A stretch of DNA of 64,000 nt from Takakia lepidozioides (taxonomy: Eukaryota > Plantae > Bryophyta). How positions within the stretch are numbered: position 1 is the first letter of the stretch; the number at the start of each line of letters is the position of its first letter. Shown here piece by piece: positions 19,673 through 64,000 of this stretch. The notes under the pieces are model-generated. The model saw only the letters and a list, made by a program, of their open reading frames with translations. It was not told where the DNA came from and searched no databases. Made by a program: the position numbers and the translations under genes. The stretch is from assembly GCA_030704615.1 (NCBI GenBank), contig CM060732.1, positions 49,476,001-49,540,000 of the forward strand, given 5' to 3'.

Positions 19673-21164
19673 CCATGTACAGTACAGAGGACACGCTTCA
19701 GAACCTGCAAGAAACGCGCCGCAATACACTGGACACGATGGACAACGTGCAAGGAGCATCAGTGCGCACGTTCGCGGCTGTTGGCAAGTGGCAGGTGGCA
19801 GGGATAAGGTTTGAATTCATGCCCTACAAATGGAGGGCTCAGATGGCATTTACGAATGGACGGTCCAGATGCGGCATCATCAGTGGACTGGAGGAAAACG
19901 GACTCATGGGCGGCGGACTGGCGGGCAGACTGTTGGGTGGACTGGCATGGATGGTGCGGATGGGTTTCTTAGAATGGACGATCTAGATCCTTCGGCCGGC
20001 GCGGACTGGCAGACTGGCAGACGGGCACAACGGACAGTTGGGTGGACTTGCGGGGACTGGCACGACTGGCGTGCACAACGGACTGGCCGACAGACTGGCG
20101 GTTTGGCGGACTGAGGAGAACTGGACTCACGGGCAGCGGACTGGCGGGCGGACTGGCCGCACCGGATTGGGGGCGCGGCGGAGCACGGGCGGGGCTGTTG
20201 CGGGCGCGCGGCAACAGCTGGGCAACCGCGCGCAGCGGCGGGCGGGGGGGGGGGGGGTGTCCAGGTGGGGGGAGCCGGGCGTCCGTGCGCGGGGCCCATC
20301 GGTCAGCTCGCGCGTGCGCCATATCGTCCCAATTATTGTAAAATGAGAGGCAGGTTAAATTGGACAAATTTCACATCCTAAGGATACATTAAACTTTTCA
20401 ATACTAATGCCATCAATTATTCTCAAAACAAGGTCTTTGCAAAGAATCAAGCTCCAACTTAAAGAACTGAACTCTAAGAACCAAAACTTATAGCTTTGCA
20501 CAATAATACGATGTATGACATTCATGTTACTAACTAACGGAGCGGTTTGATGGTCCAAACCAGTGTTGGGCGGTTATCAGGTTTTCGTGAGCTCCTCCGG
20601 TGCAGGTTCTTTGCCAATTGGCCCTTCTTTAAAACCTCCGGAGGCGGGTAAATGGCAAAAGAAAAAATTAAATAACCTGCCGGAGGCGGTTCTTTGATGT
20701 TTTCAAAAAACCCGGTTAAGTTCAATTCCGGTTATTAAAGACCTTTGCACAGGCGGTTTTTTGAACCGGTTCTGGAAGTTCAATATACTTCATAACCCGG
20801 TAGATAACCGGCGGTCCTTAAAACGGTTATATTGCGGTCATGTAAACGAACTACTTATAAAATAAAAATTTACATATATTGAAATGATGAAAATATTAAT
20901 TTTAAAAAAACTTAAATAAATGCCAAGCAGGGATTGACCAGCCATGCAAGATGGTTAGCCCTTGAAATTGGATCATCAAGATGATCAATAATGGACATCT
21001 TAGTTACCAGATTGGTGTCACATTCATCTTAGCAAAGGTATATGCTGACACTATTTATTGATAACCGGGTCCTTTTTTAAGGCCATGGCCGGATACCAAT
21101 AAATAAAAAACCAAACTTGCTCGCCGGTTCTCAAAGCCCGCCGGTTATCTCAACCCCTAGCCTC

Positions 21165-21249
21165 TGTCGTGCGCATACATATCGCTACACAACTACATCG
21201 CTGTCCAAACCACACCACACATATATGCACAATAAAGTAGTCTGCCACA
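21165..21249 (-). repeat. Repeat B, outer copy (element 3' terminus)
   Basis: 85 bp TGTCGTGCGC...CTGCCACA; direct repeat of 21603-21686 with a 1-nt indel. Confidence 0.9.
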
Positions 21250-21252
21250 ATA

Positions 21253-21600
21253 GATAGAAAACCCACGAACACACTGGTTACACAAAACATGAAAACCAAA
21301 CCATCACTCTTTAAAACAGTAGTCGAGCCAGGGGCACCCCAAGCTATGGGGACTCCACCCCACAACAACCTACACTCCCATCATGAGTACACTCAGACCT
21401 AAACGCATGCAGGAGTTCGGTCGCGCAGGCTCAACTCGAGAAAGATGAGCCGCGCGACTGCCGCTCTCGTGAAGATAAGACGGACCAGGTGTCAAACTAA
21501 ACTTGACACCTGATTTAACACTTGACCTAAATCCAAGTGTTAAATACAAATAACTAGTTTTATTCTAGCTGTTTTCACACTGTGCTTATTTAACTTGACA
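21253..21600 (-). repeat. Terminal repeat L (3' copy)
   Basis: Direct repeat of 32579-32926, flanked on both sides by repeat B. Confidence 0.93.
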
Positions 21601-21602
21601 GC

Positions 21603-21686
21603 TGTCGTGCGCATACATATCGCTACACAACACATCGCTGTCCAAACCACACCACACATATATGCACAATAAAGTAGTCTGCCACA
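21603..21686 (-). repeat. Repeat B, inner copy, preceded in element sense by a PPT-like tract
   Basis: Sense TAGGGGGCGAT (21687-21697) directly precedes TGTGGCAG... . B joins L through the palindrome GACAGCTGTC (21597-21606). Confidence 0.85.
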
Positions 21687-21944
21687 ATCGCCCCCTAGCT
21701 GGTGGATAGGTCCCTCTACCTCCAGATAGCTACAAGATGTAATAGCCACAGCCGTACTAAGTCCTCTATCACTGTCCCTATGTACTCAAACTCTATAGAC
21801 CAAGAGGCCGGGTACAAGAGTAGCCCCATCGTTAGTCGCCGTCTTGCAATCTATGAACTTGAGCCAAGATCTCGTGTGTTCAAGGTCTCCTAGTAGCTGG
21901 GTCTTGCGTTTCTTGTTAACCTCCCATGGTTGTATCCACTCCCA

Positions 21945-23290
21945 CTATCCAATGCATGTGGACAACCAATCCCCATCCGGAACCATCTCAAGAGGTGGAG
22001 TCAAGCATCCCATATGCCAACCTCTAGAGCACCGATCACATACCAGCATGGTGGCTGCCCCTTTAGCAGACCCACACAACATGCACCTCAAACCTGCAGA
22101 TACCACTGCCAGGTTTGGGTCAATCCTGCCATCGACATTCGGAAGGTGACATGGCGCACAATTACGCACATGGTCCTTCCAAGTGATGCCATCCCGACCC
22201 TCCAAGACCAAGACGCCTGAGGGCAAGACCTCTCGAACCCTCAAAATAACACGTCCTGCAGTCACATCCAGGGTCGTAGGAGCAGTCTGCTGCAGATAGA
22301 CATAGTCACCAGGGTTGAATCTCCGAACCCCAGGACGATAGCCCCCACCACGTATGGTAGCATACCTCAACGTATCACGGTGTTGTGCAATGGCAAGGTT
22401 CTCGAAAGCCATGGGCATGACTCTCTTGAACAACTCTGCACGCTGCTCACATGCACGTGCCCACACGTCCGGATCGTCAAGGTTAAGAACTAGCAGCTTC
22501 TCTGCGAATGGATGTAGGCAAATCCGGCTCTCGGCCAAAGAGAAGAAAGTATGGTGAGAAAGAGGCAAGTGATGCTTGCTTGCTGAACCTGTAGCCCATG
22601 GCTAACCAGGGTAACTGAAGGTCCCAATCTCCTAGGTGTCCCTTCTGCAAGCCATACTTGCGCAAACCCCTCTTTACTGTCTGAACAACTCTCTCTGCCA
22701 AGCCATCGGCTTCAGGATGATCCCGAGAAGTGGTGCGGTGGTCTATCAAGGCTTGTCACACAAAGCCTGAAACTCCCCCAAGAACTCTCTCCCTTGGTCC
22801 GTGAGTACCTCAGCTGGAGCACCGAATCGGCTAAGCACACAATCCAGGAATGCATACGCAGCTCCCTCACTAGCCTTATCAGGCAATGGAACCAATTCAA
22901 TCCACTTGGAGAAGTGCTCCACCATCACCAACACGTACTTGTTGTGGCGCATGGTCAGTGGCAACGGCCCTGCGAAGTCAAGACTCCACCTGTAGCCAAT
23001 CCCATGATCGGAAGAGGGTGCAATTGTGGAGTAGGGGCGTTGAATGAAGCACGCACCCTGTCACACACCATGCACCTAGCCACAAATTGTTGCACCTCTG
23101 TGCATACCACGCCACCAATACTGCCCCTGCAGTAGACTATGAGTGCGTCGCACCCCAAAATGCCCCAACTCCTCATGGGCATGCCGCACTAACCGGCCCG
23201 CTGTGTTGGGTGAGGCACAATCCTCACTCGACCATCCTCCCACACTCGGAGCAGGTGTGTCCCCTCCCACCTGAACCTCTTGGCTCGTTG
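21945..23290 (-). CDS. DDE integrase with C-terminal PHD finger
   Basis: HEELGH...CMVC (HHCC), LDFAGP, LTDQG, LAERVVQTVK. The PHD CMLC...CDRC...WHMGC LTPPL..VPDGDW lies at about 21950-22085. Confidence 0.92.
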
Positions 23291-23599
23291 TAGGATCCGA
23301 TCCCTCTCCTTGGCAGTCATAGTGGCTGCCGTGTCTCCACTGCGGAGGTAGTCCAACACAACTGAATCCTCATGTATATCTTTGGCGCCACCCTGCTCAT
23401 TGCTGGCCTCAGGGTCCTCAGACACTTGATCTACAGTCATCCCTGTTGTAGGTCCAACCTGGCCTTCCGCTGCCAAGATACACAGAAATGCAGATGCATG
23501 CCATCCGGGCACCATCTCCTCGTCCGTCTCACCATGCCACCGAGCTCCAGTGTCATCCTGCTGGCTCGTGCATGGATTGCGACTCAACCCATCTGCATT

Positions 23600-24960
23600 T
23601 CGATTGACCAAACCCGGTCGATGCACCACCTGAAAGTCATACTCTTGAAGGATGAGTGCCCACCGTGCAAGCTTCCCCGTAAGCTTGTCTGACTCCATCA
23701 ACCACTTGAGTGGTTGGTGATCCGTGACAAGGGTGAAGAGATTGCCGTATAGATAGCACCTGAAGTGTGCCACGGCCCACACTGCAGCTAAGCATTCTCC
23801 CTCATATGAGCTATACTTAGACTCTGCAGCATTGTTCGAGCGCTAGCATAAGCCACTACGAACTCTCTTCCCTCATCATCCACCTGTGTGAGCACCGCTC
23901 CAAGCCCCAGCATGCTCCAATCTGTATGCAGCTGAAAAGGACGCCCCCTGATAGGTCGTCTCAAGATGGGCGCCGAGGTCAACCTCGCCTTGAGCTCTTG
24001 AAAAGCTTGTTCTTGCTCATCTTCCCACTGCCACTCCTGGTCCACCTTGGTCAGCTTGGTTAGAGCCTTTGCAATGGCACTAAATCCCTTAACAAACCGT
24101 CTGTAATAGTTTGCTAACCCCATGAAAGCTCGAACTCGGCTCACATCCGTGGGCGTGGAACCTGTGCAATGGACTCTACCTTAGTCTGCTGTACCCCCAA
24201 TCCTCCAGGATATATCATGTGACCCAGATACTCAATCTGGTTGTGGAAAAACTTGCACTTGCCCGGATGTAACTTCAATCCGTGCGTCCTCAAGCGCTCA
24301 AATACCCCCTGAAGGTGTCTCTCATGCTCCTCCACCGCAGCACTAAAGATGATGATGTCATCTATGTAGCACCGAGCAAACTCCACCCCTGCTAGAATCC
24401 TGTCCATGACTCTTTGAAACTCAGCGGGAGCGTTTTAAGCCCAAATGGTAAGAACCGCCACTGGTATAGGCAATCCTTCCCGTGCTCATTGATCCCCCAG
24501 AATGCCGTCTTTTGCTTATCCGCCTCCTTGATCGGCAACTGGTGATATCCGGATCGTAAATCCAACGTGCTAAAGACCTTGGAATGCCCAATGGCATCAA
24601 AGATCTCCTCTGGTGTTGGCATGGCATACCTATCGGACTTGGTCTGACGATTTACAGGCCGGTAATCACCGCACATACGTCTCTCCGTCCAATTGCCATA
24701 GACATCCTTCTTAGCTGGCATCACTGTGGCTGAAGCATACTCTCCACCAGAGAGCTCCACCAAACCTGCCTCCCAGAGATCTTGAGTCCTCATCTGAATC
24801 AAAGACCTCTCCATGTCACTGTATCTATAGGGTCTCCGAAAGATTGGCGTGTCAGTGGCCAACTCAATACGGATCTGACCCTTCAGTGCTCCCAAGTCCT
24901 TCAAACTGAAGGCAAAGCAATTCCTGTAAGCCCTCAGGAACCGCCGTATACGTCGTCTCT
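23600..24960 (-). CDS. Reverse transcriptase and RNase H
   Basis: RMCGDYRPVN, FSTLDLRSGYHQ, PFGLK, YIDD; RNase H LHTDWSMLGLGAVL and TDHQPLKWL. Confidence 0.95.
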
Positions 24961-25339
24961 CTCCTCCGGTGACAATGGGTCCAATGTCAGGCTCCCAATT
25001 GTCCTCCGTAACTGCAACCTTAAGTCCAGTGGGCTTAGAGGTAGAGGACCCGTCCCGTGGTGCTATGCTGCAACCTCTTGAGCAGTACCCCCTTCCTGCT
25101 CAGTCAATGACAAGGCTCATCCTGCCCCCATCATCATCATTGAGAACCTCCTCATCCCGAGAAGAATCCCCAACCTCATCCATCACAGCTGCCTTCGCTG
25201 CCAACTCCCTCTGAACCTCGAGCACCTCCCACATGTGCCATGGATGTCTACACCTCGTGGTCCTCACCGGCTCGCCCCCACACTGCCTGTACCGTCTCGG
25301 TAGGCAGAGAGACCGTCAAGGGAAGTGCACTCCGCACTC

Positions 25340-26292
25340 TACGTTGCTCAGCCATAGCCAAGCTGACAATCCAGGTCAAGCAATTGAGATCCATTGCTTG
25401 CCCCAACACCTGACGACGTGATGCCTCAGAAAGAGAAGGCACCGCCGTGGTCCCAGTGGAAAACCCCATAGCCCGCTCTCGCTCGTCGGCATTAGGCTCC
25501 ACTAACTGCTGCAACTGAGCATCCCACAGGAGGCCAGGTCCACCATCCCGAAAAGCATGGGATCCTGGGAAGCTGAGCAGTGTAGGTAATGCTGCTCGTG
25601 GTTGACCCACCCTGTTGACCACTGCCAAAGGCGAACGGTCATCGTGTCTCACACGTTGAGACTGCCTTCCTGTGTCCAAAATGCCATCCACGGTGAGGTG
25701 TGCTGGCCGCTGCACCCCATCAAATGCACGCTTGAGCAGTGCGGGTGGCATCAAGTTAGTCCACCATAGTCGTGGACGATGAGCCCGTGACCCCACTGCA
25801 GCTGCATCCAGCAACACTGCTGACCCAAGCCACGACCGGACTTGATGCACACTGGCCATCACCCTGGCCCGAGAATCACCCATCAGTGGTACATTCTCCA
25901 AGATGTATGCTGGAGATACAGCTTGATGAAGCTGCAAGCAACGCAAAATCCGCACCATCTCCCAAAACAGACCCGTCCTCGAGTCTCAATCCATTGCCAT
26001 GCCCGGCTGATGAATGCCCTTGGCAGGGCCAACCTGCCACTATCAGATCAATAGAGCCAACCTGCTCCAAATCTTGCGCCCCCAACAAGGAAATGTCTGC
26101 TGGCAAGGCTTGTTGGTATCCACGAACTGCAGACACAGGCAACAAGTCAGGGTACTGCTGTACCAACTGAGCAACATGGCGCAGTGAGACGCGTCGTGCA
26201 GTCATCTCTTCACAGGTAACGCCTTACCCGCACACCTGCAGCACAGCAGCCAATTGCTCGCCCAAACAAGTCCAGAAGGCAATGCCTTCATC
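25340..26292 (-). CDS. C5-cytosine DNA methyltransferase domain (DNMT3-like) inside Pol
   Basis: Motif IV DLIVAGWPCQGHS, VI YILENV, VIII SRAHRPRLWWTN, IX ERERAMGF and X RRQVLGQAM. Motif I is damaged here but intact in copy 2 (LDLFGGISTG). Confidence 0.92.
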
Positions 26293-26561
26293 CGGCCGCT
26301 GCCATACAAGAGGTGTGGTGTCCAATGGCGACAACTGAGGTGGCCCTGGTGCAATCACCGAACTCTCCTCCTCCTGACGGTACAAAAGCTTCTTCCCAAG
26401 CTTGTTGCACCCAGGCCCTTGCTCGTACCCCACAAAGCAACCATGGCAGGCAACTCCGCCGTACCATGCATGTCATCCTGCTCTGCTGGAGGTGGCACAT
26501 CCTCTGCATGGCATTGCTTCCAGCAACTCTCCAGGCCAACTAACGGCAGCTGTGAAGGCGG

Positions 26562-27308
26562 CTAGTGTTGGCATCTGCCCCGCTGGGCAGCTGCAATACC
26601 CCCAATGAATGTCACAGGGAGCTGTGCACGGCGACCATCCCCTGACTGCCATCCAGGCCTGTAGGATGCTGACTCCTCCCAGAAATCCAGGGTGAAGCCC
26701 ATGGGGTATAACACTGCCCCACCAACGAGGACATCGTAAGAGACCGCGTCTGTCACAATGGCCTTGGCTCGCATCACTGAGCCATCTACAGGATGATCCG
26801 GCTGCAGTCTAATAGCCAACTGATGTCGTGTCATGCCGCGAGCCTGCTCTGATCCTCCCAGAGATGTCTGTATCTGGAAAGGACAAGGCTCCATATCCGC
26901 CTCCATGAGGCCCAAACCTGCAATAGCAGCTCTGCCCAACATCAGTGGCTGAGCTCCTGAGTCCAACAAGACCCGCAGTGGCCGGTACTTCTTGCCTGCC
27001 GGTCCACTCAAAGTGAAAATGCCTCCCTGGTTGTCTAACAAGACAACTCCAGGTGTCACCATGGCGCGCTCAATGGCTGGCCTAGCTGGCAGCTCCGTCA
27101 ACCTAGCAGCTGCAGCTTGCCAGGGCGCTGCCGTGGCAGTCTTGACCCTCAAATCCGAGGATCCCTCTGCCACTACACCTTCCACTAACTCCGCAGAAGA
27201 TGAAGTGACCTCCCCACTCTCACAGAGTGTTGCTGCTAGTCTGAACACTGCAGCTGGTCTCACCCCGGCGTCGCAATCATTGTTGCCGAGAACAGTGGGG
27301 CCTGACAC
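26562..27308 (-). CDS. Aspartic protease domain
   Basis: LRVLLDSGAQ active site and YDVLVGG (ILG-like) motif. Confidence 0.85.
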   Translation of the reverse strand: MSGPTVLGNNDCDAGVRPAAVFRLAATLCESGEVTSSSAELVEGVVAEGSSDLRVKTATAAPWQAAAARLTELPARPAIERAMVTPGVVLLDNQGGIFTLSGPAGKKYRPLRVLLDSGAQPLMLGRAAIAGLGLMEADMEPCPFQIQTSLGGSEQARGMTRHQLAIRLQPDHPVDGSVMRAKAIVTDAVSYDVLVGGAVLYPMGFTLDFWEESASYRPGWQSGDGRRAQLPVTFIGGIAAAQRGRCQH

Positions 27309-27363
27309 ACAGAGGTGGCTGCCCCCAATAACACACCGGCCGCACTAGCCTTGGCAGCAGGAG

Positions 27364-29196
27364 TCAATGCTGCACGTGTAGCTCTCCCAATGGCATAGAA
27401 CTCCGCCTCGGTAACAGTCGGGCGAGAACTAGGTGCCATGGATGGCGTTGACACAGTCTCCGCCAATGTGAATGACTGAGGAAGCCTTGCCTGACGGCTT
27501 GCCTCCCACACTGTGGATCCAATTCCACCTCTGCACCTCGTGGCTCAGGAACTCGTGCTGCTCCTCGAGTCACGGCTGCAGCAGACTCCACCTGCTCTAG
27601 TGGTAGTGCTGCTCCGCACATAAATCCCATGCCTCCCATATCTCCTCCCTCAGGAGCAGGAGGTGGACCATCCCGCCTGGGAGCCGGTACCGCCTGAGCT
27701 ATAGCCATGGCAGCGAGCCTCTGCTCTAGCTGCTGAAGCCGGTTGGCCATGCCTTGATCAACGCCCTGACCTCCGCGTCCTTGGCCATGTTGAGCTTGCC
27801 CTTGGCCTGCACCTCGTGCCCGACCACCTCGTCCTCTCTGGGCTGGTCCACCTCGCCCCCGGCCACCATTGTTCCCTTGGAACTGGCCTGGGCGCAACTC
27901 AGGATGCAAGTCATAACACTGGGCATCTCCATGCCCATACTTGCCACAATGCCCACACTGCAACTGTGCAGGCTGTGCTTGTGCCGGCCTTCTGCCACTC
28001 TCTGGGCAATCTCTCTTGACATGGGGTCCTCCACATGTCCAACATATCACCCCTGGTTGCTGTTGGCCTGCAAAAGATGCCACGGGCCTCTGCACCTGAG
28101 GCCCCCTGTAAGCCATGGAACTTGGGCTGGGCAACCTTGCCCCCCTGACCACGCTGTTGGGCAGTCCCTTGTGCTTGTGGGCTGACAGCTGTGCCCCGTA
28201 CAGGCATGTCCTTGCCAAATCCAATTGTAACAACTCGTTCCTCCACCATGTTGAGCTCAATCCGCTCAGCCAGCAGAAACACATCTGCTAATGTGGGTTG
28301 GGCTGCTTGTAACAGGGTTGCATCTCGCACCCTTCTCTTGAGCTCCTTGTCCAGAATTCCATACCAAAACTGGATTGCCTGAGCTTCAGTAACCCCTTGG
28401 GTCACACTTATCAAGCGCCTCATACGAGTGTACGCCTCTCGCAGGCTCTCACTGGGTTTGCGCTGGAAGTCTTGCAAACTTCGCAGCTTCTCTGTCCGTA
28501 CACCTTGGTAGTTCCTCCGCAACTCCTGGAAGAACCACCGGGTTGAATCTAGGCACATGTGTTGTAGTGTGGCAGGAGGAGTAGTAGCACCTTTGAACTG
28601 GTACCACCTGCAGAAGTACCAGCACTACCTGCTCCACTACTAGTGCTGGCAGTGGGAGCTATTGGTACTGATGCAGCTACTGGTCGCGTCGTGCCTCGAG
28701 TAATGGAGATGTAGTCAGGTGACCAATACATCCTCCACTCCTCAATCTCTGCTTCATGTCCTCGCCTGAACTCGTGGTAATCGTCCATAGGCGGGCCTTC
28801 CAAATGCTGGAACAGTCCCTTCCACGCCATGAATGGGGTGAATAGATGTGGATTGCGCATCTGCTGCAAATCACACCAGCTGTCGAACTCCTGGATAAAG
28901 TCATCCAACTCGATTGTGCCCACAGCTCCAGAGTACCTACGAGGCCCCTTGGTAGCTCCATACATCTCCTCCATGTCGTCCCACAACAATGGCGAATGAA
29001 AGTGCACACCTGTTGATGAAGCCTCCGAGTCTGTGTCTGACTCTACAGTAATTGAGGGTGGCGGTGAAGGTGGTCTGAACCGAATACCTCGTCTTGTGAA
29101 CCCACTCTCACTGTTACTGCCTGTAGCCGTACTCCCCTCAAAACCCTTGGGTAACTCCGTAATGACACTCACAATGTGCACCTCCTCCAGTGACAC
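27364..29196 (-). CDS. gag: Gag with two zinc knuckles (frameshifted)
   Basis: Major-homology-like region FQRKPSESLREAYTRMRRL; knuckles CWTCGGPHVKRDC and CGHCGKYGHGDAQC. Confidence 0.85.
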
Positions 29197-29695
29197 TATA
29201 AGGCTCTAGTACTAATCTAATAGTGACACGGGTGGGCACCTGTTGCAGTCTAAGGGTCATATCCCAGTGGCTCAGGGCACCTGCACCTGCATCCACCGCA
29301 AGAACTCCTATGGTTGGCTGGTCATCAACCCAGCCTCACCATAGAAGAAACACTGGTGGTTGCTGGTCATCACTCCAGCCTCACCACCGACAGCATACTC
29401 TAGGATTGACCGGTGATCAAATCCGGCCTAATCCCTATGAAAGCAAGCGCCCACACAAAACCAACATGGCGCACAGTCAAGCATGCAGGTGTTGGGGGGG
29501 ATCCAAACACAAGAAATCAAAACATCAACACCCCCACACCAAAATCCAGCTGCAATGCTGATCCTGCAGAATATCCCAGCCCAAAACCCCGGACTGACTG
29601 GCCTCCACCAAGAGAGGCTTTGGCAACTACAAGTATAAGGTAATGAAAATAGTACAGAGATGGAGGGGAAGAATAGAAGCCCGCCCAAGCAAGAT

Positions 29696-30340
29696 CTAAC
29701 CCTGATATGCTATCAACTTCCAGACTTCTCTCAAAGTACCTCGCTCTGCTTGATGGTAAGGTGTAGGAGGTATATCTATGTCCAGAAACCTGCCACTAAC
29801 CTTGTCCCAAGCTACAGTAGCTCGCTCTAACCAACCCTCCTCCTCTTTCTGCCAGGTAGAGACAAAGCAACACTCTGCTATCTCCCGCTCACTGAACACT
29901 AAAGAAAACAAAGGTAGGGTCTGATAGTCTCTCAACTCGAAAGCTTTGAGACGGTTTGGTGTCTTCATTGCGAATGACTGCATCGCCTTCAAACAGAACA
30001 AACTTGTCCTCGCTAATGAACCCCGCTCGTGGTTGTTGCAGAGCGTGTCCGACTGCAACACTGTCTAATTGCACAAACTTGTGCAGCTCCTGCTCCTCTG
30101 CTCCAGTACACCACGGCCTTGTGGCTGAACACCTTGGTCCCCGGTGCTGTCTTTGGCTGTGTTCCAAGCCTAGCTTTCACCCACTTTGGTATTTCACCTA
30201 CAGCTGCAGAACTGCTGCTCCAACAGAGTTCTGACTGTCCAAGGCGATATTGAGGCCCTCAATGCCAACTACAGCAGTCTGTTGTCTACTGCTAATGCCT
30301 GACTCCAGTATGCAATCAACTCGTCCAACTGTTCTCCACT
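29696..30340 (-). pseudogene. Unidentified degenerate ORF upstream of gag (element sense)
   Basis: 121-aa ORF 29696-30061 plus interrupted upstream coding-like sequence; no recognised motif. Confidence 0.3.
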
Positions 30341-31000
30341 CAAATCAGTCTGAGTTCCTTGGGAAACATAAATCCTGTCCCCTTGTGTGCACAGGCTAAG
30401 AGAAGAGACCTGCCTTCAATTACGTCCTCATTTCCCCCAGCCATGCAAGGAGTACATCCACAGGTTTGTCTCTCATATAGGCCAGCACAGGTTCTAGAAA
30501 CAGGATTGTGGATATTTCGTGGCACACTCACACTCTAAAAATTCCATAGATTTTTAGCAGAGTCCCAAAAAACAGAAACCAGGTCTAGATAGGTAGATTC
30601 CCTTTGCAGCTATCCCCTCAAAAACTGTGTCAAACAGAGTTCATTTGCCAAAGATATGACCAATTAGGCTCTAAATCCTTTAACTTAGATCAAAAGGGTT
30701 TTTTCTTTTTTCTTTTTCTTTTTCTTTTCTTTTCAAATTTAAAAATTCAAAGGAAGGTGAGAAGCTCTTTGGAAACTTCCCCTATCCTTACATGCTTTTC
30801 CACCTGGGTCATGCTTCTCCCTGCATGGGGTGGAATTTGCATATGCTTATCAGCGTTGGAGAGGGCGGCAAGAGCGGACGTACTGATTGCGGGCGTACAG
30901 AGCTGAAGGATGGGCTTTAGGGGCTATGGCGGCTGTCTCAATGCAGGTTGTAGCGGAAGTCTCCTGCTCGACTCTGTGGCAGTCGGGCTTTCTGGCGGGT

Positions 31001-31198
31001 TCCAATGTGCAGATGGTTACCACCTCCATGGGGATGCTCAATAGGGTTCATGGCCACACCCCGCACCTTAGTCCAGCTATTGCGCTTCACCTTGTACTTG
31101 TGATATGCACACCTTCAGCATAGTCTACTCTGTTCGGCCCCTTCCAGCAACTGCCCTACCATCGCTCGGCATCCGCTTGGTATAACCTTCTTTGCTCC
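31001..31198 (-). pseudogene. RPL8: Captured fragment of 60S ribosomal protein L8 (uL2)
   Basis: GAKKVIPSGCRAMVG...[36 protein letters not shown], read across small indels. Confidence 0.88.
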
Positions 31199-31656
31199 CT
31201 TAGTGAGAAGGATGTATCTTTTGTGCTCGTTGCATTTCGTGTCCAATTACTCCATCTACGTTGAGGATCAAAGAGAAAGCAACGACACCTGCTCGTCAAG
31301 CGAGCACTCAACACAGCACGAAGTGCGGCAGCGAGCTGGAATGAGCACAAGGCCCAGGCTACGTTGTTCCATAGGCGGGGGCTCCTTCATCACTGATGCA
31401 GAGGGGCAGGAATTTGCCTGAACTCCAGAGTGTCATACAAAATTATGTTCCCTTGTTTGTCCAGACAATGAAATTTCTCCACAAACACTCGTCCGTCCTC
31501 TACTCCCACACGCAGCCTGCGATACAGAAGCTTCCGCGCCCGCTTCACAATGGGCTTCACCGTCTCCACTCCCTGCTCCTCCTGCTTCTCTTCTCTACCT
31601 TCTTCTGCTGCAGCCGTCCACTTTGTTGGAGTAGGATCCCCTCCTCGGGTCGAAGG

Positions 31657-31927
31657 ATGGCGTCTTCGGACCTGATCTGGTTGTTGGTAAAGAACAGCAA
31701 CAAGTTTTTGGTGAAGAGGAACGGCAATGGCAATGCCTCTGTGACATTCAGCTCTGAGCCGAACAATTGTATGACTTGAACACGTTCCAATATTCAGGGC
31801 TTGCCAATAAGAAGACAGTGGCTGTTGCCTAAGCTGGTGAGGGTCTATCAGTTGTGCTTGCCACCACCAAAACTAAGAAGGTGAACCAGCCCTCAGTTTC
31901 AGTTCACCGATCACACTAAAGAAGGAT
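31657..31927 (+). pseudogene. RPL28: Captured uninterrupted 5' fragment of 60S ribosomal protein L28 (eL28) with its UTR
   Basis: MASSDLIWLLVKNSNKFLVKRNGNG..VTFSSEPNN / YSGLANKKTV..VVLATTKTKK.NQP, preceded by a pyrimidine-rich leader. Confidence 0.88.
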
Positions 31928-32561
31928 GTCATCTGGCGTTGCTGTAAATCCATCGCGAGCAATGAGACCAGCTGCAATGTCGTCTCGACATGCTCTAATT
32001 CCCTGACTATTGACTGTAAGCACCCGTGGCTTGGCCTGGTATACTTTCAGGAATTCGCCAATATTGCAATACACAATACTTGATCACCTTGCTGACACGG
32101 AGAGGAAAAAATCATGCATTCATGCAGGAAGCAAACAGCCTGCCCCACAGCCCGCCTCATGGCTACCGCTCTCCGGTGCAACGTCCAGCAATGCTTCCAG
32201 CCCTCAGACTGCCATCAACACCGAAGTTGCGCATGGAAAATCGCTCCTGCAAAAAGCGCCTCTGCTCGCAACAACCTCAAGTGTGCAGCCAGCTTCTCCT
32301 CATCTCCACTGCCCACTGCTTTCTTCAATTTCGGAAAGGCAGTCGCAGCCATGCTTGCTGGATTGCACCGACTCCCTCTTTGTCTATCCTCTTTGTTATT
32401 GCTGCTACTTGACCCCATTCTCAGATATAGCCACATGTTGACAAAAAATTGCAGCAACATCTCAAGCCTCCCGTTTCTGCTCCCCGTGACCAAGCTATAT
32501 TATAATAGTGCTTAAAAAACAAAAACATCATATCTAGCTTAGCACTGGAAAACTAGATAGA

Positions 32562-32577
32562 GCTCATCTTTCTCGAG
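32562..32577 (-). promoter_or_regulatory. Self-priming PBS of copy 1
   Basis: GCTCATCTTTCTCGAG abuts the LTR and is the exact reverse complement of 32761-32776 within the LTR. No TGG tRNA-type PBS is present. Confidence 0.8.
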
Positions 32578-32926
32578 TGATAGAAAACCCACGAACACAC
32601 TGGTTACACAAACATGAAAAACCAAACCATCACTCTTTAAAACAGTAGTCGAGCCAGGGGCACCCCAAGCTATGGGGACTCCACCCCACAACAACCTACA
32701 CTCCCATCATGAGTACACTCAGACCTAAACGCATGCAGGAGTTCGGTCGCGCAGGCTCAACTCGAGAAAGATGAGCCGCGCGACTGCCGCTCTCGTGAAG
32801 ATAAGACGGACCAGGTGTCAAACTAAACTTGACACCTGATTTAACACTTGACCTAAATCCAAGTGTTAAATACAAATAACTAGTTTTATTCTAGCTGTTT
32901 TCACACTGTGCTTATTTAACTTGACA
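32578..32926 (-). repeat. Terminal repeat L (5' copy)
   Basis: TGATAGAAAA...AACTTGACA. Identical to 21253-21600 except for two A-run lengths and the terminal base. Confidence 0.93.
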
Positions 32927-32978
32927 CCTCCGCTGGACCTGTTTATATCCGGTTTTTTGATTTTTGCAGCTCCTCCGG

Positions 32979-37519: not shown

Positions 37520-37936
37520 CATGCTAGTTTTGTGTGGGCGGTTGTTTTTATAGGTGATTGGTCCGGATTTGATCACCGGCCAGTCCTAGAGCATGCTGTC
37601 GATGGTGAGTCTGGGGTGATGACCAGCCAGACCATCATTGTTTCTCCTGTGGTGAGGTTGGAGGTGATGACCAGCCAACCATAGGAGTGCTTGCGGTGGA
37701 TGCAGGTACAGGTGTAGGCTATGTTAGGAACTTAGTATTCCAAACCATAAGCCGCAACAGGTTCTCTAGCCGGTTACCTTGTGGAGAGGGGGTTATGGAC
37801 ATGTTCATGACCAGTTAAGTGTCAACATGGAGGTGCCACTAGTTGCTGGGGACAGTGCCGGTTCGAGCACTAGCGATACTAGTGGGTACACGAGATGAGG
37901 TGTGCGGTTTAGGCCACCTTCACCTCCCGTGTCTTC
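37520..37936 (+). mobile_element. Isolated internal fragment (leader plus gag start) of the DNMT-retrotransposon family
   Basis: Near-identical reverse complement of 54408-54823. Confidence 0.88.
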
Positions 37937-54121: not shown

Positions 54122-57100
54122 ATGGTAATCATCCATAGGCGGCCCCTCAAGGTGCTGAAACAACCCTTTCCATGCCATGAACGGCGTAAATAGTTGTGGA
54201 TTGCGCATTTGCTGCAAATCACACCAACTATCAAACTCTTGGATAAAATCATCCAACTCGATGGTGCCCACCGCCCCAGAGTACCTTCGTGGCCCCTTGG
54301 TAGCTCCATACATCTCCTCCATTGTGTCCCACAACAATGGCAAAGAAACAACTTGCACCGCCGGTATGAGTCATCCTGATTCACAATCCAAATCAGAACC
54401 TTCCGTGGAAGACACAGGAGGTGAAGGTGGCCTAAACCGCACACCTCGTCTCGTGTACCCACTAGTATCGCTAGTGCTCGAACCGGCACTATCCCCAGCA
54501 ACTAGTGGCACCTCCGTGTTGACACTCAACCGGTCATGAACATGTCCCTAACCCCCTCTCCACAAGGTAACCGGGTAGAGAACCTGTTGCGGCTTATGGT
54601 TTGGAATACTAAGTTCCTAACATAGCCTACACCTGTACCTGCATCCACCGCAAGCACTCCTATGGTTGGCTGGTCATCACCTCCAACCTCACCACAGGAG
54701 AAACAATGATGGTCTGGCTGGTCATCACCCCAACCGCACCATCGACAGCATGCTCTAGGACTGGCCGGTGATCAAATCCGGACCAATCACCTATAAAAAC
54801 AAGCGCCCACACAAACTAGCATGGCGCACAGTCAAGCATGCAGGTATGGAGGGGATCCAAACACAAGAAATCAGAACGACAACTCCACGGTGTTGCTCCT
54901 GCAAGGACACCCCAGCCCAAACCCGGACTGACTCTTGCTTCCACCTACGGAAAGGTCTTGGCCTAATGAGAGGGTGGAAACTACAAGGAAGAGAAGCTAA
55001 AGCAATGCCTAACCCCAGCATGCCCTCATCCCAACACTCTTCCTCTCCTCTCTTCCCTCACTTGCATGACCATGGGAATATCATGAAGATACTCCTCAAA
55101 CCGCCCTCCACGAGCTTCAAAATTCGGCTTCCAGACCACATGCCAGTCCTTAGGCAGTCCACCAGTGCCTCCACGAGTCAGCACAGGCCGTCCACAGGTC
55201 AACACGGGCCACCACAGACCAGCAACAGGCCCACACAGCTCACTGGTCACAACCGTCAACAGTCCCACAGGCCACTGGGCACAGCCTGTCCACAGCCCCT
55301 CACAGCCCCAAAGGCCTCAGGCACGGCTTGTCACAGCCCCTCACAGCCCGTCGTCACAGCCCCACAGGCCACTGGGCACAGCCTGTCACAGCCCCGCACA
55401 GCCCGTCACAACCCCACACACAGGCCACTGGGCACAGCCTGTCACACAGCCCCTCACAGCCCCTCACACCCCACAGGCCTCAGGCACGGCTTGTCACACA
55501 CAGCCCCTCACATCCATCACAGCCCCAAAAGCCATGGGCACAGCCTGTCCAGCCCCTCACAGCCTGTCACAGCCCCACAGGCCGGGCACAGCCTGTCACA
55601 TCCACACGCCCCGCACAGCTCGTCACAGCCCCACAGGCCACTGGGCACAGCCTGTCACAACCCCTCACAGCCCCAAAGGCCACGGGCACAGCCTGTCACA
55701 GCCCCTCACAGCCCGTCACAGCCCCACAGGCCTCAAGCACGGCCTGTCACACAGCCCCTCACAGCCCATCACAGCCCCAAAGGCCATGGGCACAGCCTGT
55801 CACAGCCCGTCCCGCACAGCCCTCACAGCCCCACAGGCCACTGGGCACAGCCTGTCACAGCCCCGCACAGCCCGTCACAGCCCCACAGGCCTCAGGCACG
55901 GCCTGACACAGCCCCCACCACCAGCCCTCACAGCCCCAAAGGCCTCAGCACGGCCTGTCCCACAGCCCCTCACAGCCCCTCACAGCCCCAAAGGCCTCAG
56001 GCACGGCCTGTCACAGCCCCTCACAGCCCCTCACAGCCCCACAGGCCTCAGGCACGGCCTGACACAGCCCCTCACAGCCCCTCACAGCCCCATCCATGGC
56101 CGCTCTGGCAGTTTAGAGCCATTTCTCCAAGGGGTTTAGCCACGCCAAGCTAGGGTTTGTGTCTCTTGGACTCTAGGCTTCTTTTCCACCGAGCTATGGC
56201 GGCTGTGAGGAAATCAGCAAGGTATTCTTGCTCTTTCGGCTCCCACACACCACCATAGTAGCCCTAAGCCATGAGGTGGTTGCCACAAACCAAGCCTTCT
56301 TTCTCACTTAGCCTCCCCAAACACGTCACTAAACTCAATGGCAAACAACCAAGCCCTGCTGGTTCCCAGCCCTTGTGAGCACTCATTCAAGCACTCTCCT
56401 TGGCCATAGCATCTGTCTTAGAGCCTATTCTAGCCCCCTACACCTGCTGCTTCAAGAGTTGCGCTCCCTTCAAGCTTGAAGTTGAAACCCCAACTCACAT
56501 AGGCCCTACAAGTGCTTTTCTTTCACTCCAAGTGGAAACCAGCCCTAGACCTTTCCGTTCTAAGCTCTCTGAAGCTTGAAAACAAGAGCCTCAATGGGCT
56601 GAAGGCATGCTCCACACATGCCCCACTCTCACCATAAGAGAATCAGCCCCTTTGCTCCATTTCTTGCACCCACAAACCTGAAAATACAAGCTTCAGCAGG
56701 CTGAAAGCATGCTCCCACATGCCCTACAGGGAAACCAGCCCTTCCTTCCTTTCTTTCTGCACTCCCACACCTGCAAGTGCAAGCCTTCACCAGGCTGATA
56801 GCATGCTCCACACATGCATTGCCCTCACATAAGGGAAGTCAGCCCTTCCCTCTTCCTTGCTTGCCCTCCAAGCTTGAAGATGGAAGCTTCAATGAGCTGA
56901 ATACATGCTCCACAATGCAACCTCTTCACACAAGAGATATCAGCCCCCTATCTTGGCTCCTTGGCTCCTTGATGCTCTCTAAGACAAGACTAAGCACTCC
57001 ACAACCTTGCCAAGCTCCTGAAACCCTAAGGCTTACATTTCCAGCCACAAGACACTTCTCTTGTGGTGCAAGAGCTCTTCTTCCAAGCTCTGAACCCTAG

Positions 57101-61353: not shown

Positions 61354-64000
61354 GAGTTCAGGCGGGGGCATGAGGTTGAGATCGAGGAGTGGAGGATGTA
61401 CTGGTCACCCGACTATGTCTCCATCACTAGGGGCACTAGAGCCACGAGGGCAGTGGCTACACCTGCCGCTGCACCGGCAGCTTCAGCAAGTAGCAGTGGA
61501 ACTAGTGGGACTGGTGGTACAGTAGCTACGACGTCCACCCAAGCCACTACCGCACCAGCACTAGCACCAGTGTCTGCCTTCAACCCTATTGTGGAGTTCT
61601 TCGAAGAGTTGAGAGGGAACTACCAAGGGGTGAGGACAGAGAAGTTGCGGAGCTTGCAAGAGTTCCAACGGAAGCCGACCGAGAGTTTGAGTGAGGCTTT
61701 CACTCGCATGAGGCGCTTGATAAATGTAACCCAAGGGGTTACGGAAGCTCAGGGAAGGGCAGAGAGGACCTCAGATGCAGGGGTCTCTCCCTTCATTTGC
61801 TGGCCAACAACGGGCGGATATGGTGTGCTGGACATGTGGAGGACCCCATGTCAAGAAGGATTGCCCAGAGGGAGGCAAAGGGTCGGCACATGCACAGCCT
61901 GCACAGTTGCAGCGTGGGCATTGTGGCAAGCACGGGCATGGAGAGGCCCAGTGTTATGGTTTGCATCCTGAGTTGCGTCCAGGTCAGTTCCAAGGGAACA
62001 ATGGTGGCCGGGGGCGAGGTGGAGCATCCCAGAGAGGACGAGGTGGCCAGCCACGAGGCCAAGGGCAAACTCAACGTGGCCAAGGATGCGGAGGTTAGGG
62101 TGTTGACCAAGGCATGGCCAACCGGCTTCAGCAGCTAGAGCAGAGGCTCGCTGCCATGGCTACAGCTCAGGTGGTACCGGCTCTAAGGCCGGATGGTCCA
62201 CCTCCTGCTCCTGAGGGAGGAGATATGGGAGGCATGGGATTCATGTGTGGAGCAGCACTACCACTAGTGCAAGTGGAGTCTGCTGCAGCCGTGACTCGAG
62301 GAGCAGCACGAGTTCCTGAGCCACGAGGTGCAGAGGTGGAGTTGGATCCACAGCGTGGGGAGGCAAGCCGTCAGGCTAGGCTTCCTCAGTCATTCACATT
62401 GGCGGAGACAGTGTCGACGCCATCCATGGCACCTAGTTCTCGCCCGACGGTTACCGAGGCGGAGGTTACTATGCCATTGGGGAGAGCTACACGGGTAGCA
62501 CCACTACCTAGTGTTGCCAAGGCTGCGGCAGCTAGTGTGCTGCTAGGAGCGGCCACATCTGTGTGCCAGGCTCCATTGTTCTCGGCTACCATGATTGCGA
62601 CGCTGGGGGTAAAACCAGCTGAGGTGTTCAGGCTGGCAGCTACACTCTGTGAGAGTGGGGAGGTTACTTCATCTTCTGCGGAGATAGTGGGAGGTGTAGT
62701 GCCGGAGGGATCCTCGGATTTGAGGGTCAAGACTGCCACGGCGGCGCCATGGCAAGCTGCAGCTGCCAGGTTGATGGAGCTGCCAGCTAGGCCAGCCATT
62801 GAGCGCGCCATGGTGACACCTGGAGTTGTCATGTTAGACAACCAGAATGACATTTTCTATTTGAGTGGACTGGCAGGCAAGAGGTACCGGCCACTGCGGG
62901 TCTTGTTGGACTCGGGAGCTCAGCCATTGATGCTGGGCAGAGCTGCTATTGCAGGCTTGGGCCTCACGGAGGCGGATATGGAGCCTTGTCCTTTCCAGAT
63001 ACAGACGTCTCTGGGAGGATCGGAGCAGGCTCGGGGCATGACACGGCGTGAGTTGGCTATCAGACTACGACCGGATCACCCTACAGATGGCTCAGTGATG
63101 CGAGCCAAGGCCATTGTGACAGACGCAGTCTCATACGATGTCCTGGTTGGTGGGGCAGTGTTGTACCCCATGGGCTTCACCCTGGATTTTTGGGAGGAGT
63201 CAGCTTCCTATAGGCCTGCATGGCAGTCAGGGGAGGGCCGGCGTGTGCAGCTCCCTGTGACGTTCATAGGAGGAGTTGCGGTTGCCCAGCGAGGCAAGAT
63301 GCCGATACTAGCAGCATTCACAGCGGCAGTGAGTTGGCCTAGAGAGTTGCTTGAGGGCAATGCTCATTCAGAGGATGTACCACCTCCGGGAGAGCAGGAT
63401 GACATGTATGGTATGGCGGAGTTGCCTACCATGGTTGCTCAGACTCCATTGTGGGGCACGAGCAAGGATTTGCAGCGGGATGCTGATCGACGGGTGCAAC
63501 AGGCCTGGGTGGAGGCTTTTGTACCGTCAGGAGAGGAGGAGAGTGCGGGGATTGCACCAGGACCACCTCAGTTGTCTCCATTGGACACCACACCTATTGT
63601 GTGGCAGTATCCGGATGAAGGCATTTGTCTTCTGGACTTGTTTGGCGGGATCAGCACCGGATTGGCTGCTGTGTTACAAGCAGGTGTACGAGTTCGGCGT
63701 TACCTGTATGTGGAGAGGGATGAGACTGCACGACGCGTTTCACTTTGCCATGTTGCTCAGTTGGTGCAGCGGTACCCTGAGTTGTTGTCGATGTCTGCAA
63801 TTCATGGATATCAGCAGGCCTTGCCAATAGACATTTCGTTGCTGGGGGCGCAGGATTTGGAGCGGGTTGGCTCCATTGATCTGGTAGTGGCAGGTTGGCC
63901 CTGCCAAGGGCATTCATCAGCCAAGCATGGCAATGGATTGCGAGACTCGAGGTCGGGTCTGTTTTGGGAGATGGTGCGGGTTTTGCGCCACTTGCAGCTT
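61354..64000 (+). mobile_element. DNMT-retrotransposon copy 2, gag-protease-DNMT part (runs off window)
   Basis: Starts EFRRGHEVEIEEWRMYW. Internal gag deletion at about 61752 and one CAG>TAG at 62096. The frame is then open from 62099 to 64000 through LLDSGA, LDLFGGISTG (63632-63661), YVERD and AGWPCQG (about 63900). Confidence 0.93.

Follow-up and report, generated by a model that had tools for sequence, protein, structure and literature searches.

The question raised by this locus, a stretch of 64,000 nucleotides of Takakia lepidozioides DNA that was analysed at its full length (hereafter the 64-kb window), is whether an integrase of the Ty3/gypsy type ends there in a genuine PHD finger, and what such a finger might do for a retrotransposon that also encodes its own DNA methyltransferase (DNMT). 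The finger forms the final 46 residues of the integrase and lies at the C-terminal end of an open reading frame of 218 amino acids (P0001; 21945..22601, minus strand), the translation of which closes with CMLC-x11-CDRC-x4-H-x2-C-LTPPLEMVPDGDW-LSTCIG-stop. Its first cysteine (C1) is encoded at 22083-22085 and its final residue at 21948-21950, with a stop codon directly afterwards (21945-21947, minus strand); the bounds of 21950..22085 given in the original prediction therefore fit, and the motif described there is real and lies on the minus strand, except that the spacer between C2 and C3 holds 11 residues rather than 12. The segment matches Pfam PF00628 (E 2.4e-8; 34.3 bits, against a gathering threshold of 24) across profile positions 1-43 of 47, and this E-value, together with 262 strong relatives, rules out a chance pattern of cysteines. 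The motif is confirmed as a genuine PHD finger.

The finger is not intact in this copy, in which six of the eight zinc ligands are present and the last pair is broken as assembled. The seventh cysteine, which had been described as lost, is indeed replaced by Ser at a position that is a ligand in relatives (P0002, P0308 and P0310), but the damage goes further, in that the eighth cysteine is also out of register and is followed by the stop. The canonical C4-H-C3 spacing, which this finger lacks, is found in 258 of 379 family proteins, the nearest ones (P0308 and P0310) included. When sequencing-run contigs were compared with the window, small length changes appeared in exactly the PHD tail.

The finger closes a polyprotein with the domain order gag-PR-DNMT-RT-RNaseH-IN(H2C2, core, SH3-like)-PHD (Table 1). 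The proposal that a PHD finger and a DNMT belong to one polyprotein is borne out both by Pfam and by the translations, and the element is a damaged copy of a ‘Gypsy-DNMT3’ retrotransposon. Its reverse transcriptase and RNase H are 80% identical, over 372 columns, to a protein of Calypogeia fissa (P0220); its integrase profile also matches the Ty3 integrase (7q5b, 2.8e-22); and Pfam gives no chromodomain (PF00385) match in the element. The DNMT retains its PCQ and ENV motifs, with the region of motif I broken by a frame change. All 12 of its matches in the PDB are to DNMT3A but are weak (E 0.03-0.35), so that its assignment to DNMT3 is drawn mainly from the published account of such elements in PMC5890265.

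Table 1. Positions of the retrotransposon's features, and of further family fragments, in the 64-kb window
Feature	Positions	Strand	Basis
PHD finger, C-terminus of polyprotein	21948..22085	-	translation; Pfam PF00628; AF2; Foldseek
Integrase C-terminal region: long helix, then SH3/Tudor-like beta barrel, in frame with PHD	22152..22472	-	AF2, Foldseek
Integrase H2C2 zinc-binding domain and catalytic core (rve), two frames as assembled	22746..23198	-	PF17921 E 9.6e-10; PF00665 E 2.9e-13
Reverse transcriptase and RNase H, four frames as assembled	23638..24682	-	Pfam RVT_1, RT_RNaseH, RT_RNaseH_2
DNMT3-like C5 cytosine methyltransferase domain, between protease and RT	25344..26295	-	PF00145 E 1.7e-5
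Aspartic protease	26763..26984	-	weak Pfam match, gag-asp_proteas E 0.0088; DSG motif in translations of both copies
Gag with CCHC zinc knuckles	27364..29205	-	Retrotrans_gag E 0.0017; CCHC in translation
5' region within element bounds, absent from the window's other copies	29524..32578	-	self-BLAST: others stop at equivalent of 29523
5' terminal long repeat, 349 bp, starts TG	32579..32926	-	99.4% identical to 21253-21600 (BLAST)
3' repeat block: short (21602-21688), long (21253-21600), short (21164-21251), ends CA	21165..21688	-	BLAST 98.9%, 99.4%
Second family copy: end of gag, protease, start of DNMT	61354..64000	+	87.5% identity to 25929-28044
5' family fragment (start of gag, leader)	54123..54877	-	matches 28775-29001 and 29278-29523
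Another 5' family fragment	37520..37936	+	96.9% to 54408-54823 (inverted); 87% to 29278-29468

The terminal repeats follow a ‘split-direct-repeat’ layout, with a long repeat at the 5' end and a short-long-short arrangement at the 3' end; the 88-bp short pair was detected by BLAST, the repeat finding having given the long pair alone. Identical bases, four in number, flank the two ends of the element (32927-32930 and 21161-21164), and BLAST found no repeats of its flanks within the 64-kb window. The 5' region that is peculiar to this copy contains fragments of host-type genes (Ribosomal_L28e and Ribosomal_L2_C); the label ‘LSM-like’, given by eye to an open reading frame at 31393-31872 (minus strand), was dropped for want of a Pfam match. 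In the second copy, a single open frame (62099-64000; P0190) encodes the protease and the start of the DNMT and shows the DSG motif, motif I and PCQ (PF00145 E 2.3e-8); this copy starts at the equivalent of position 28773, where, in family coordinates, the break point of the fragment on the minus strand abuts it. It leaves the window inside the DNMT, before RT, integrase and PHD, and no second finger was found by tblastn within the 64-kb window, which thus contains a single such finger.

Searches with P0001 returned 3444, 888 and 262 cluster representatives at E<=1e-3, 1e-10 and 1e-30, respectively; in the 262 strongest the match extends through the finger, and the C-terminal region as a whole is kept across the family (query residues 38-214 are matched in relatives). 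An rve domain is followed by a full PHD in all 24 of the long representatives scanned. Co-occurrence of PHD and DNMT across related elements, a check put forward with the original prediction, was found in 27 of 29 long representatives, and an intact close relative (P0196, a metagenome protein) reads DNMT-RT-RH-IN-PHD. Judged from these sequences, the PHD finger is a family trait that is nearly always paired with a DNMT in relatives.

The nearest named relatives of the window element are proteins of liverworts (Marchantia and Calypogeia; 78-81% identity), and members of the family occur in green algae as well as in liverworts and mosses. Among its chlorophyte members, the DNMT stands between RNase H and integrase, whereas in the window lineage it stands between protease and RT, positions that were judged from Pfam coordinates and tree rows (an RT active-site pattern caught 29 of 104 DNMT-bearing proteins); the window DNMT is nevertheless 42-44% identical to its differently placed chlorophyte counterpart (for example, 44%, E 4e-43, to the pol protein P0079 of Scenedesmus). 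Metagenome contigs contributed 21 related loci (38-55% identity), each either incomplete or of the chlorophyte type; the contigs of the closest relative, P0002, were not among them. Among the 120 relatives listed for P0002, 42 carry PF00628, six carry PF00385 and none carries both. Relatives from Closterium, which are nested within the PHD/DNMT clade, have no finger, and the domain is therefore dispensable for some lineages.

A tree built from RT and RNase H places the PHD/DNMT elements (37 rows) in a clade with support of 100, apart from the one in which the chromodomain elements group (support 99). The family is its own clade beside the chromoviruses, and membership in the latter was rejected on the grounds of this separation and of the missing chromodomain. 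Inside the PHD/DNMT clade lies a streptophyte clade of 22 rows that includes the window element (support 80), at the base of which stands a protein of Klebsormidium nitens (P0379; DNMT-RT-RH-IN). Another K. nitens protein (P0316), at 54% identity to the window, has an integrase with a canonical PHD; the K. nitens gene models are truncated, and none was seen to join a DNMT to a PHD.

Ahead of the finger, the AF2 model of P0001 contains a helix (H44-84) and a set of strands (E100-150), and the barrel formed by the latter is matched by Foldseek to the Tudor domains of PHF1 and PHF19 (target-normalised TM-score 0.76-0.82) and to Tudor-PHD cassettes. The finger itself was modelled with a pLDDT of 83-94 (residues 171-210, falling to 55 over the tail) and was matched to the PHDs of DPF2, DPF3, BAZ2A and ATXR5 with an rmsd of 1.6-2.7 (1.7 A over 44 columns for DPF2, 1.6 A over 42 for ATXR5 and 2.0 A over 48 for BAZ2A). 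As modelled, the finger adopts the PHD fold, and it sits after the SH3-like domain at the position of the chromovirus chromodomain, in agreement with the suggestion that one replaces the other at the integrase C-terminus.

PHD fingers that read H3K4me3 carry an aromatic-cage Trp at position H-2. That position is Gly in 89% of family fingers, and the only well-kept aromatics of the family finger are W/Y at H-1 and W40, as in KDM5A PHD1. The best matches of the finger among solved structures, all of them PHDs of the group that reads the unmodified H3 tail, are DPF3 PHD2 (8.8e-11), CHD4, PHF12, KDM5B/A PHD1, ATXR5, BAZ2A, PHF21A and AIRE. Identity as an H3K4me3 reader was set aside as unlikely because of the Gly at H-2 and because no such reader occurs among the 60 matches listed in either solved-structure list, the class labels being those of PMC3241642 Table 1, PDB titles and paper titles.

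The contacts that KDM5A PHD1 makes with the histone tail, as named in 10.1101/715474, were mapped one-to-one onto the family by spacing. The hydrophobic residues L308, L309 and L310 correspond to M13, L14 and L15 (kept in 88, 76 and 81% of the family), and the hydrophobic residue before C3 (L/V15) is present in the window finger. The Asp after C3, which binds Arg2 (D312 in KDM5A), corresponds to D17 (89%); V330 corresponds to V/I35 (85%); and the loop that anchors Ala1 is represented by P36 (P331; 97%), G38 (G333; 89%) and W40 (W335; 97%). In all, the window finger keeps eight of the ten contact residues named in that source. At position 10, the equivalent of the acid that contacts Lys4 (E305), the window has Ala, and just 51% of 178 fingers have E or D there; at the counterpart of D315 the window has Ser, where 7% of the family have Asp. 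An acidic cluster before C1 is a hallmark of readers of unmodified H3K4 (PMC3241642), and the corresponding residues in the window (VSAGLR) include no such cluster, with D at -2 in 38% of the family.

Both its sequence and its predicted fold, then, liken the finger to PHDs that read the unmodified tail of H3. The corresponding part of the original prediction is favoured by the group to which the best solved matches belong and by the kept Ala1 and Arg2 contacts, but it is weakened by the missing K4 acid and acidic cluster; since the acid that contacts Lys4 is not kept, a reading of Ala1/Arg2 is better founded than a reading of K4me0.

Armed with these comparisons, we lean towards a reading in which the PHD finger that ends the Gypsy-DNMT3 integrase serves, in intact relatives, as a tether to unmodified H3 tails. 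In favour of this predicted role, chromodomains at the same, post-integrase position do direct integration (Gao et al. 2008, cited in PMC6673714). A grip on the unmodified N-terminal tail of H3 would hold the integrase on nucleosomes, with the likely result that new insertions avoid promoters methylated at H3K4; the target of the DNMT would be the cDNA or the insertion of the element itself, in line with proposals for published relatives. We infer here the binding to histones, the choice of target and the link between landing site and methylation by the DNMT. In the window lineage, the mature protein that bears the finger probably lacks the DNMT.

Of the alternatives, one in which the finger docks elsewhere (on another histone state, such as H3K9/K14 modifications together with the tail, on a host chromatin protein or on the element's own proteins) seems unlikely, although several features speak for it. 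The K4 pocket varies, as does the charge of the C2-C3 loop, which is basic or neutral in the liverwort lineage and acidic in chlorophyte relatives; among PHDs of this sequence type are some that recognise other states of H3 or partners other than histones (PMC3241642, PMC10124903); and the barrel followed by a PHD is reminiscent of the Tudor-PHD cassettes of PHF1/MTF2 and UHRF1, readers of combinations of marks. However, integrases ordinarily possess an SH3-like barrel, and the best-kept positions other than zinc ligands are the Ala1 and Arg2 contacts (89-97%), which favour the H3 N-terminus.

We think it distinctly unlikely that reader and writer are coupled, such that recognition of H3K4me0 by the finger steers or activates the element's DNMT at the insertion site, much as the ADD domain does in DNMT3A/3L. 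The reading of unmodified H3K4 by the ADD/PHD domains of DNMT3A and DNMT3L is established (PMC3241642 Table 1), and the DNMT and PHD have been kept together in nearly all of the long representatives although the DNMT changed its place in pol; shared descent alone, however, explains co-occurrence within one clade. A DNMT-IN-PHD protein is conceivable in chlorophytes, where the DNMT is directly N-terminal to the integrase, but in the window lineage RT and RNase H lie between the DNMT and IN-PHD, and these would end up on different products after the usual cleavage. The K4-contact acid is, moreover, poorly kept, and the isolated DNMT of KnitGypsy-Dnmt3 produced no methylation in yeast, a result that its authors regard as inconclusive (PMC5890265). 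That the finger has no reader role and is a zinc-stabilised cap for folding, multimerisation or DNA binding is very improbable: integrases do already use zinc modules (H2C2) structurally and the Closterium relatives manage without a finger, but Pfam and the fold alike mark the domain as a standard PHD, and what it conserves includes, besides the ligands, surface positions at which solved complexes touch H3.

If the preferred reading, that of a tether to the unmodified H3 tail, is correct, then integrase tethering would have been solved a second time, independently of the chromodomain, and the finger would offer a natural test case for reader-guided integration. Transposons with their own chromatin reader and their own writer of DNA methylation can choose both landing site and marking, and such elements bear on the shaping of plant and algal epigenomes. 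A more ambitious proposal, which we consider improbable, is that a clade as old as the split between chlorophytes and streptophytes carried a reader and a 5mC writer throughout, despite a move of the DNMT from its place between RNase H and integrase to one between protease and RT, with the finger steering to H3K4-unmethylated chromatin and the DNMT marking the new copy. If true, the element would copy the logic of DNMT3 (to read K4me0 and then methylate) and would write part of the host methylome, that of land plants (liverworts and mosses) included.

Several systems already described share parts of this arrangement. The closest is Gypsy-DNMT3 (KnitGypsy-Dnmt3), published for Klebsormidium nitens by de Mendoza et al. 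in 2018 (PMC5890265), with a Ty3/gypsy pol and a DNMT3-like domain inside the pol reading frame; the kinship is supported by the position of P0379 in the same RT clade as the window element. The two also share a repeat layout, KnitGypsy-Dnmt3 having DIRS-like repeats and not plain LTRs, according to the legend in PMC5890265, and the window element its split repeats. The host of KnitGypsy-Dnmt3 is K. nitens, whereas the nearest named relatives of the window copy are liverworts. PHD occurs nowhere in the text and three supplementary files of PMC5890265.

The chromoviruses, which form the neighbouring RT clade, likewise place a histone-reader domain after the SH3-like domain of the integrase (Gao et al. 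2008, cited in PMC6673714), but there the reader is a chromodomain rather than a PHD, and the ligand is H3K9me rather than, as predicted here, the unmodified N-terminus of H3. PHDs are common accessory domains of C. reinhardtii transposons (PMC9940879, PMC8557442), and REM1/Gypsy-7a_cRei of Chlamydomonas, compared by description only, is a Gypsy element with a PHD in pol (Craig et al. 2022, PMC9940879 figure 6 legend; PMC8557442), for which that figure legend gives no DNMT. The EpiLTRs, as described in 10.64898/2026.05.21.726589, are LTR retrotransposons that combine a histone reader and a cytosine DNMT in one element; their reader, however, is a chromodomain, they add a DAM adenine methyltransferase, their DNMT, of DNMT4-like type, is attached to pol at its 3' end, and their hosts are Cymbomonas and Euglena.

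Among cellular proteins, the best sequence and fold matches of the window finger are KDM5A/B PHD1, DPF3 PHD2, BAZ2A, AIRE PHD1 and BHC80. KDM5A PHD1 shares with it the same spacing from C3 to Trp, and the residues that contact Ala1, Arg2 and Thr3 are kept in the finger; what separates it from these cellular readers of unmodified H3 is that the window lineage has kept neither the Lys4-contact acid nor the N-terminal acidic cluster. PHD fingers in green-algal transposons and retrotransposons with a reader plus a DNMT are thus already in print, and a literature search, the scope of which stopped short of bioRxiv supplements, brought up no account of a Gypsy element that names both a PHD and a DNMT. 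What the present finding contributes to the known Gypsy-DNMT3 kind is one more domain and a broader range of hosts, not a new kind of element.

The integrase of the damaged Ty3/gypsy element in the window ('copy 1') carries a PHD finger at its C-terminus. Its 218-residue open reading frame product, P0001, closes with 46 residues that read CMLC-x11-CDRC-x4-H-x2-C-LTPPLEMVPDGDW-LSTCIG-stop, and the Pfam PHD profile (PF00628) matches the finger over positions 1-43 of 47, scoring 34.3 bits where the cut-off is 24 (E 2.4e-8). The original prediction of a finger at this place, with its first zinc ligand encoded at 22083-22085, is thus borne out, as is the loss of the seventh cysteine: a serine stands at the position of the relatives' seventh ligand. 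The cysteine after that serine is out of register and is followed by the stop, leaving the last zinc pair broken. Two details required correction: the spacer between the second and third ligands, given as 12 residues, is 11 in the translation, and a tblastn search of the window returned one finger only, rather than the two copies that had been proposed.

Judged by sequence comparison, the finger is a trait of the family and not peculiar to copy 1. A search with P0001 across 1.84 billion representatives gave 3444 matches at E<=1e-3, 888 at 1e-10 and 262 at 1e-30, and the alignments of the best 150 run through the finger. An rve domain followed by a full-length PHD was present in all 24 long representatives scanned. 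The canonical C4HC3 pattern occurs in 258 of 379 collected proteins (a set that includes chromoviruses and other Gypsy elements), and the exact spacing C-x2-C-x11-C-x2-C-x4-H-x2-C-x14-C-x2-C in 199, yielding 178 unique fingers. The closest relatives, at 78-81% identity, are an ENA protein (P0308), Marchantia polymorpha MARPO_0060s0038 (P0309) and Calypogeia fissa P0311, with Marchantia Mp_7g09570 (P0310) at 68%. The finger is intact in P0308 and P0310, P0311 lacks one ligand, and all three stop a few residues past it; a regular-expression scan did not find the canonical pattern in MARPO_0060s0038. Further named hosts are Klebsormidium nitens, Sphagnum magellanicum, Pleodorina, Volvox, Haematococcus and Scenedesmus. 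The C-terminus varies within the clade (P0226, P0213, P0232, P0239, P0247): one finger in this set ends in C-x2-H rather than C-x2-C, one protein has a divergent Cys/His-rich tail with no Pfam call, and Closterium proteins lack a finger, their last domain being the SH3-like one. Chlorophyte-type relatives (loci L002, L003, L005 and L008; P0050, P0323 and P0324) have giant gag-side reading frames (1949-2738 aa) and extend about 400 aa past the finger; a G-patch domain lies between the methyltransferase and integrase in P0050 and is recorded for P0323 and P0324 in precomputed Pfam lists.

As assembled, the coding region of copy 1 contains about 13 frame changes, and contigs of four public sequencing runs (X1, X3, X5 and X6) were aligned to window positions 21100-29600. 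The source organism holds the element family in great abundance, with 67,602 contigs of run X1 matching this interval. Differences between the run contigs and the window are unusually rich in single-base gaps, which are located at the window's frame breaks; three longer X5 contigs show 20 substitutions and 29 gaps across about 4 kb. Natural divergence would be expected to leave far fewer gaps, so some of the damage in copy 1 may stem from errors of assembly. Over the final ~20 bases of the finger, two small length changes, three letters in sum, separate the window from the single X5, X6 and X9 contigs and, at one of the two places, from roughly half of the X1 coverage. The break in the zinc pair thus belongs to this copy or to its assembly and not to the family, in whose natural relatives the canonical ending is present.

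Pfam matches and translations of the minus strand give the order gag-PR-DNMT-RT-RH-IN-PHD for copy 1. Copy 2 (P0190) has a single open frame across the protease, methyltransferase motif I and PCQ; the window ends before its reverse transcriptase, integrase and finger. Its start corresponds to the family position at which the opposite-strand fragment at 54123 stops (equivalents 28773 and 28775), and these break points suggest either that ~7.2 kb was inverted, with a break inside the element, or that the region is misassembled.

Features of the element family in the window
Feature	Position	Strand	Basis or remark
Open reading frame of P0001, 218 residues	21945..22601	-	translation
Integrase SH3-like region	same frame as finger	-	Pfam and translations
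rve	22746-23060	-	Pfam; Integrase_H2C2 also on - strand
RNase H and RT	24141-25099	-	Pfam and translations
C5 DNA methyltransferase, PCQ and ENV motifs	about 25344-26295	-	Pfam and translations
Aspartic protease		-	Pfam and translations
gag with CCHC knuckles	27364-29205	-	Pfam and translations
Ribosomal_L2_C fragment	30941-31114	-	inside 29524-32578
Ribosomal_L28e N-terminal fragment	31672-31776	+	inside 29524-32578
Two 5' fragments of element family	54123-54877 and 37520-37936		BLAST
Copy 2	61354-64000	+	87% identical to copy 1

The ends of copy 1 are not plain LTRs. A 349-bp repeat (32579-32926 versus 21253-21600, 99.4% identity by BLAST) is combined with an 88-bp repeat that lies on both sides of its 21253-21600 unit (21602-21688 and 21164-21251, 98.9%), so that the order along the element is long ... 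short-long-short, a split-direct-repeat layout of the kind named 'DIRS-like' in a figure legend for KnitGypsy-Dnmt3 of K. nitens (PMC5890265). The element's two ends, joined together, appear to be copied at the inner short-long junction. The outer ends are TG...CA with four identical bases next to both, which sets the bounds at 21165-32926, about 11.8 kb. Within them, 29524-32578 is not common to the window's other copies and holds long reading frames with no family matches together with two ribosomal-protein fragments; no other exons of either gene lie near the fragments in the window, and they may be pieces of host mRNA acquired by the element.

Several further features surround these copies. 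Directly upstream of the copy 2 gag, an unbroken 223-aa reading frame (60250-60918, plus strand) encodes a complete TMEM18 domain (E 2.4e-42) and could represent a retrocopy or a gene that has no introns. A minus-strand frame at 11099-11515, with PPR E+ and partial DYW deaminase motifs of the land-plant RNA-editing factor type, may be a fragment. Other mobile-element remains on the minus strand (2703-3065, 4989-5690 and 13679-14089) comprise an AAA_12 helicase fragment, RT and RNase H from a different Gypsy element, and a gag of the Ty3 type. Tandem arrays occupy 8070-8988 (period 291 bp, with relatives at 10.3 kb and 12.0-12.9 kb) and 55291-56092 (period 51 bp).

The suggested test of whether finger and methyltransferase co-occur gave a positive result. 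A profile grown from the methyltransferase of the Scenedesmus polyprotein P0079 and scanned over 29 representatives of at least 1400 aa found a methyltransferase in 27 (the exceptions being P0005 and P0027), and all 29 have the finger. Its position differs: in chlorophyte-type proteins, and in metagenome loci L002, L003, L005 and L011, it lies between RNase H and integrase, whereas in the window's lineage it lies ahead of RT, as in P0196 (67% identical to P0002, a close relative of the window's element), where DNMT-RT-RH-IN-PHD is intact, and in P0208, P0213, P0226, P0229, Marchantia P0253 and K. nitens P0379. The window and P0079 methyltransferases share 42-44% identity (E 4e-43 and 2e-23), and this is therefore one module in two positions.

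An RT-RH tree of 50 rows (quick IQ-TREE search with SH-aLRT support, the window's row carrying X at frame breaks, root not established) places all PHD/DNMT elements in a single clade of 37 rows (support 100). Fifteen of these form a subclade (support 100) in which every row has the methyltransferase after RNase H, and the finger; in the remaining 22 (support 80), it precedes RT in all six rows long enough to show its position, and the Closterium rows have no finger. The window pairs with Calypogeia P0220 (80% identity, support 97). Four of five chromodomain rows occupy an adjoining clade (support 99), and the fifth, P0306, falls on a long branch among outgroup rows. Shared descent alone can explain the PHD-DNMT pairing.

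What the finger may read was approached by comparing two queries, a 52-member family profile and the window's own 60 residues, with all PDB chains. Among the 60 matches listed for each, the PHDs that match best are CHD4 PHD1/2, PHF12, KMT2C/D, Lid, KDM5A/B PHD1, ATXR5, WSTF, BAZ2A/B, UHRF1, DPF2/3, KAT6A/B, PHF21A (BHC80), ORC1B and AIRE. AIRE, BHC80, CHD4 and DPF3 are tabulated as readers of unmodified H3K4 (PMC3241642, Table 1), and PDB and paper titles describe BAZ2A, KDM5A/B PHD1 and UHRF1 likewise; BPTF, ING, TAF3, PHF2/8, PYGO, RAG2 and YNG, classed as H3K4me3 readers (PMC3241642), are absent from the 60 matches listed per query. An AF2 model of P0001 (mean pLDDT 78.4; finger 83-94; broken tail 55) superposes its finger on those of DPF2, DPF3, MOZ, BAZ2A and ATXR5 at 1.6-2.8 Å.

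In KDM5A PHD1, the carbonyls of P331 and G333 hold Ala1 in a pocket of L309, P331 and W335, D312 (essential) and D315 hold Arg2, V330 contacts Thr3, and E305, L308 and N-terminal main-chain atoms contact Lys4 (10.1101/715474). The spacing from the third cysteine to the tryptophan is the same in the family, and positions therefore map one-to-one. Across the 178 fingers, conservation is 76-97% at M13/L14/L15, D17, V/I35, P36, G38 and W40, all of which are present in the window; the D315 position is seldom acidic. A predicted grip on Ala1 and Arg2 of H3 is therefore well supported by conserved contact residues. The sensing of Lys4 methylation, which the original prediction had included, is much less so: only 51% of the 178 fingers have E or D at the position of E305, where the window has Ala, and the acidic cluster before the first cysteine, described as a hallmark of unmodified-H3K4 readers (PMC3241642), is absent in the window's lineage (VSAGLR-C).

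The original interpretation is partly supported; in its widest form, the element would target H3K4-unmethylated chromatin and couple integration to de novo methylation. Such a coupled 'reader-writer' is less likely in the window's lineage than in the chlorophyte type, because RT and RNase H separate the methyltransferase from IN-PHD. No methylation was obtained in yeast with the K. nitens relative's methyltransferase, a result that the authors call inconclusive, and self-methylation of cDNA has been proposed for DIRS elements (PMC5890265).

Gypsy elements with DNMT3 were published in 2018 for K. nitens; the text and three supplementary files of that paper make no mention of a PHD (PMC5890265). 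PHDs are a common accessory domain of Chlamydomonas transposons, including Gypsy-7a_cRei (REM1) (PMC9940879, PMC8557442), and the PHD-DNMT pairing was not named in any paper that full-text literature searches turned up. In the model, the barrel and finger of the window's protein, taken together, look like the PHF1/MTF2 and UHRF1 Tudor-PHD cassettes. The finger is the positional analogue of the chromodomain of chromovirus-type integrases, which directs integration (Gao et al. 2008, as cited in PMC6673714); its most probable role would be to anchor the integrase on nucleosomes by way of the unmodified H3 tail. In EpiLTRs, described in a 2026 preprint, a chromodomain is combined with DAM and DNMT (10.64898/2026.05.21.726589).
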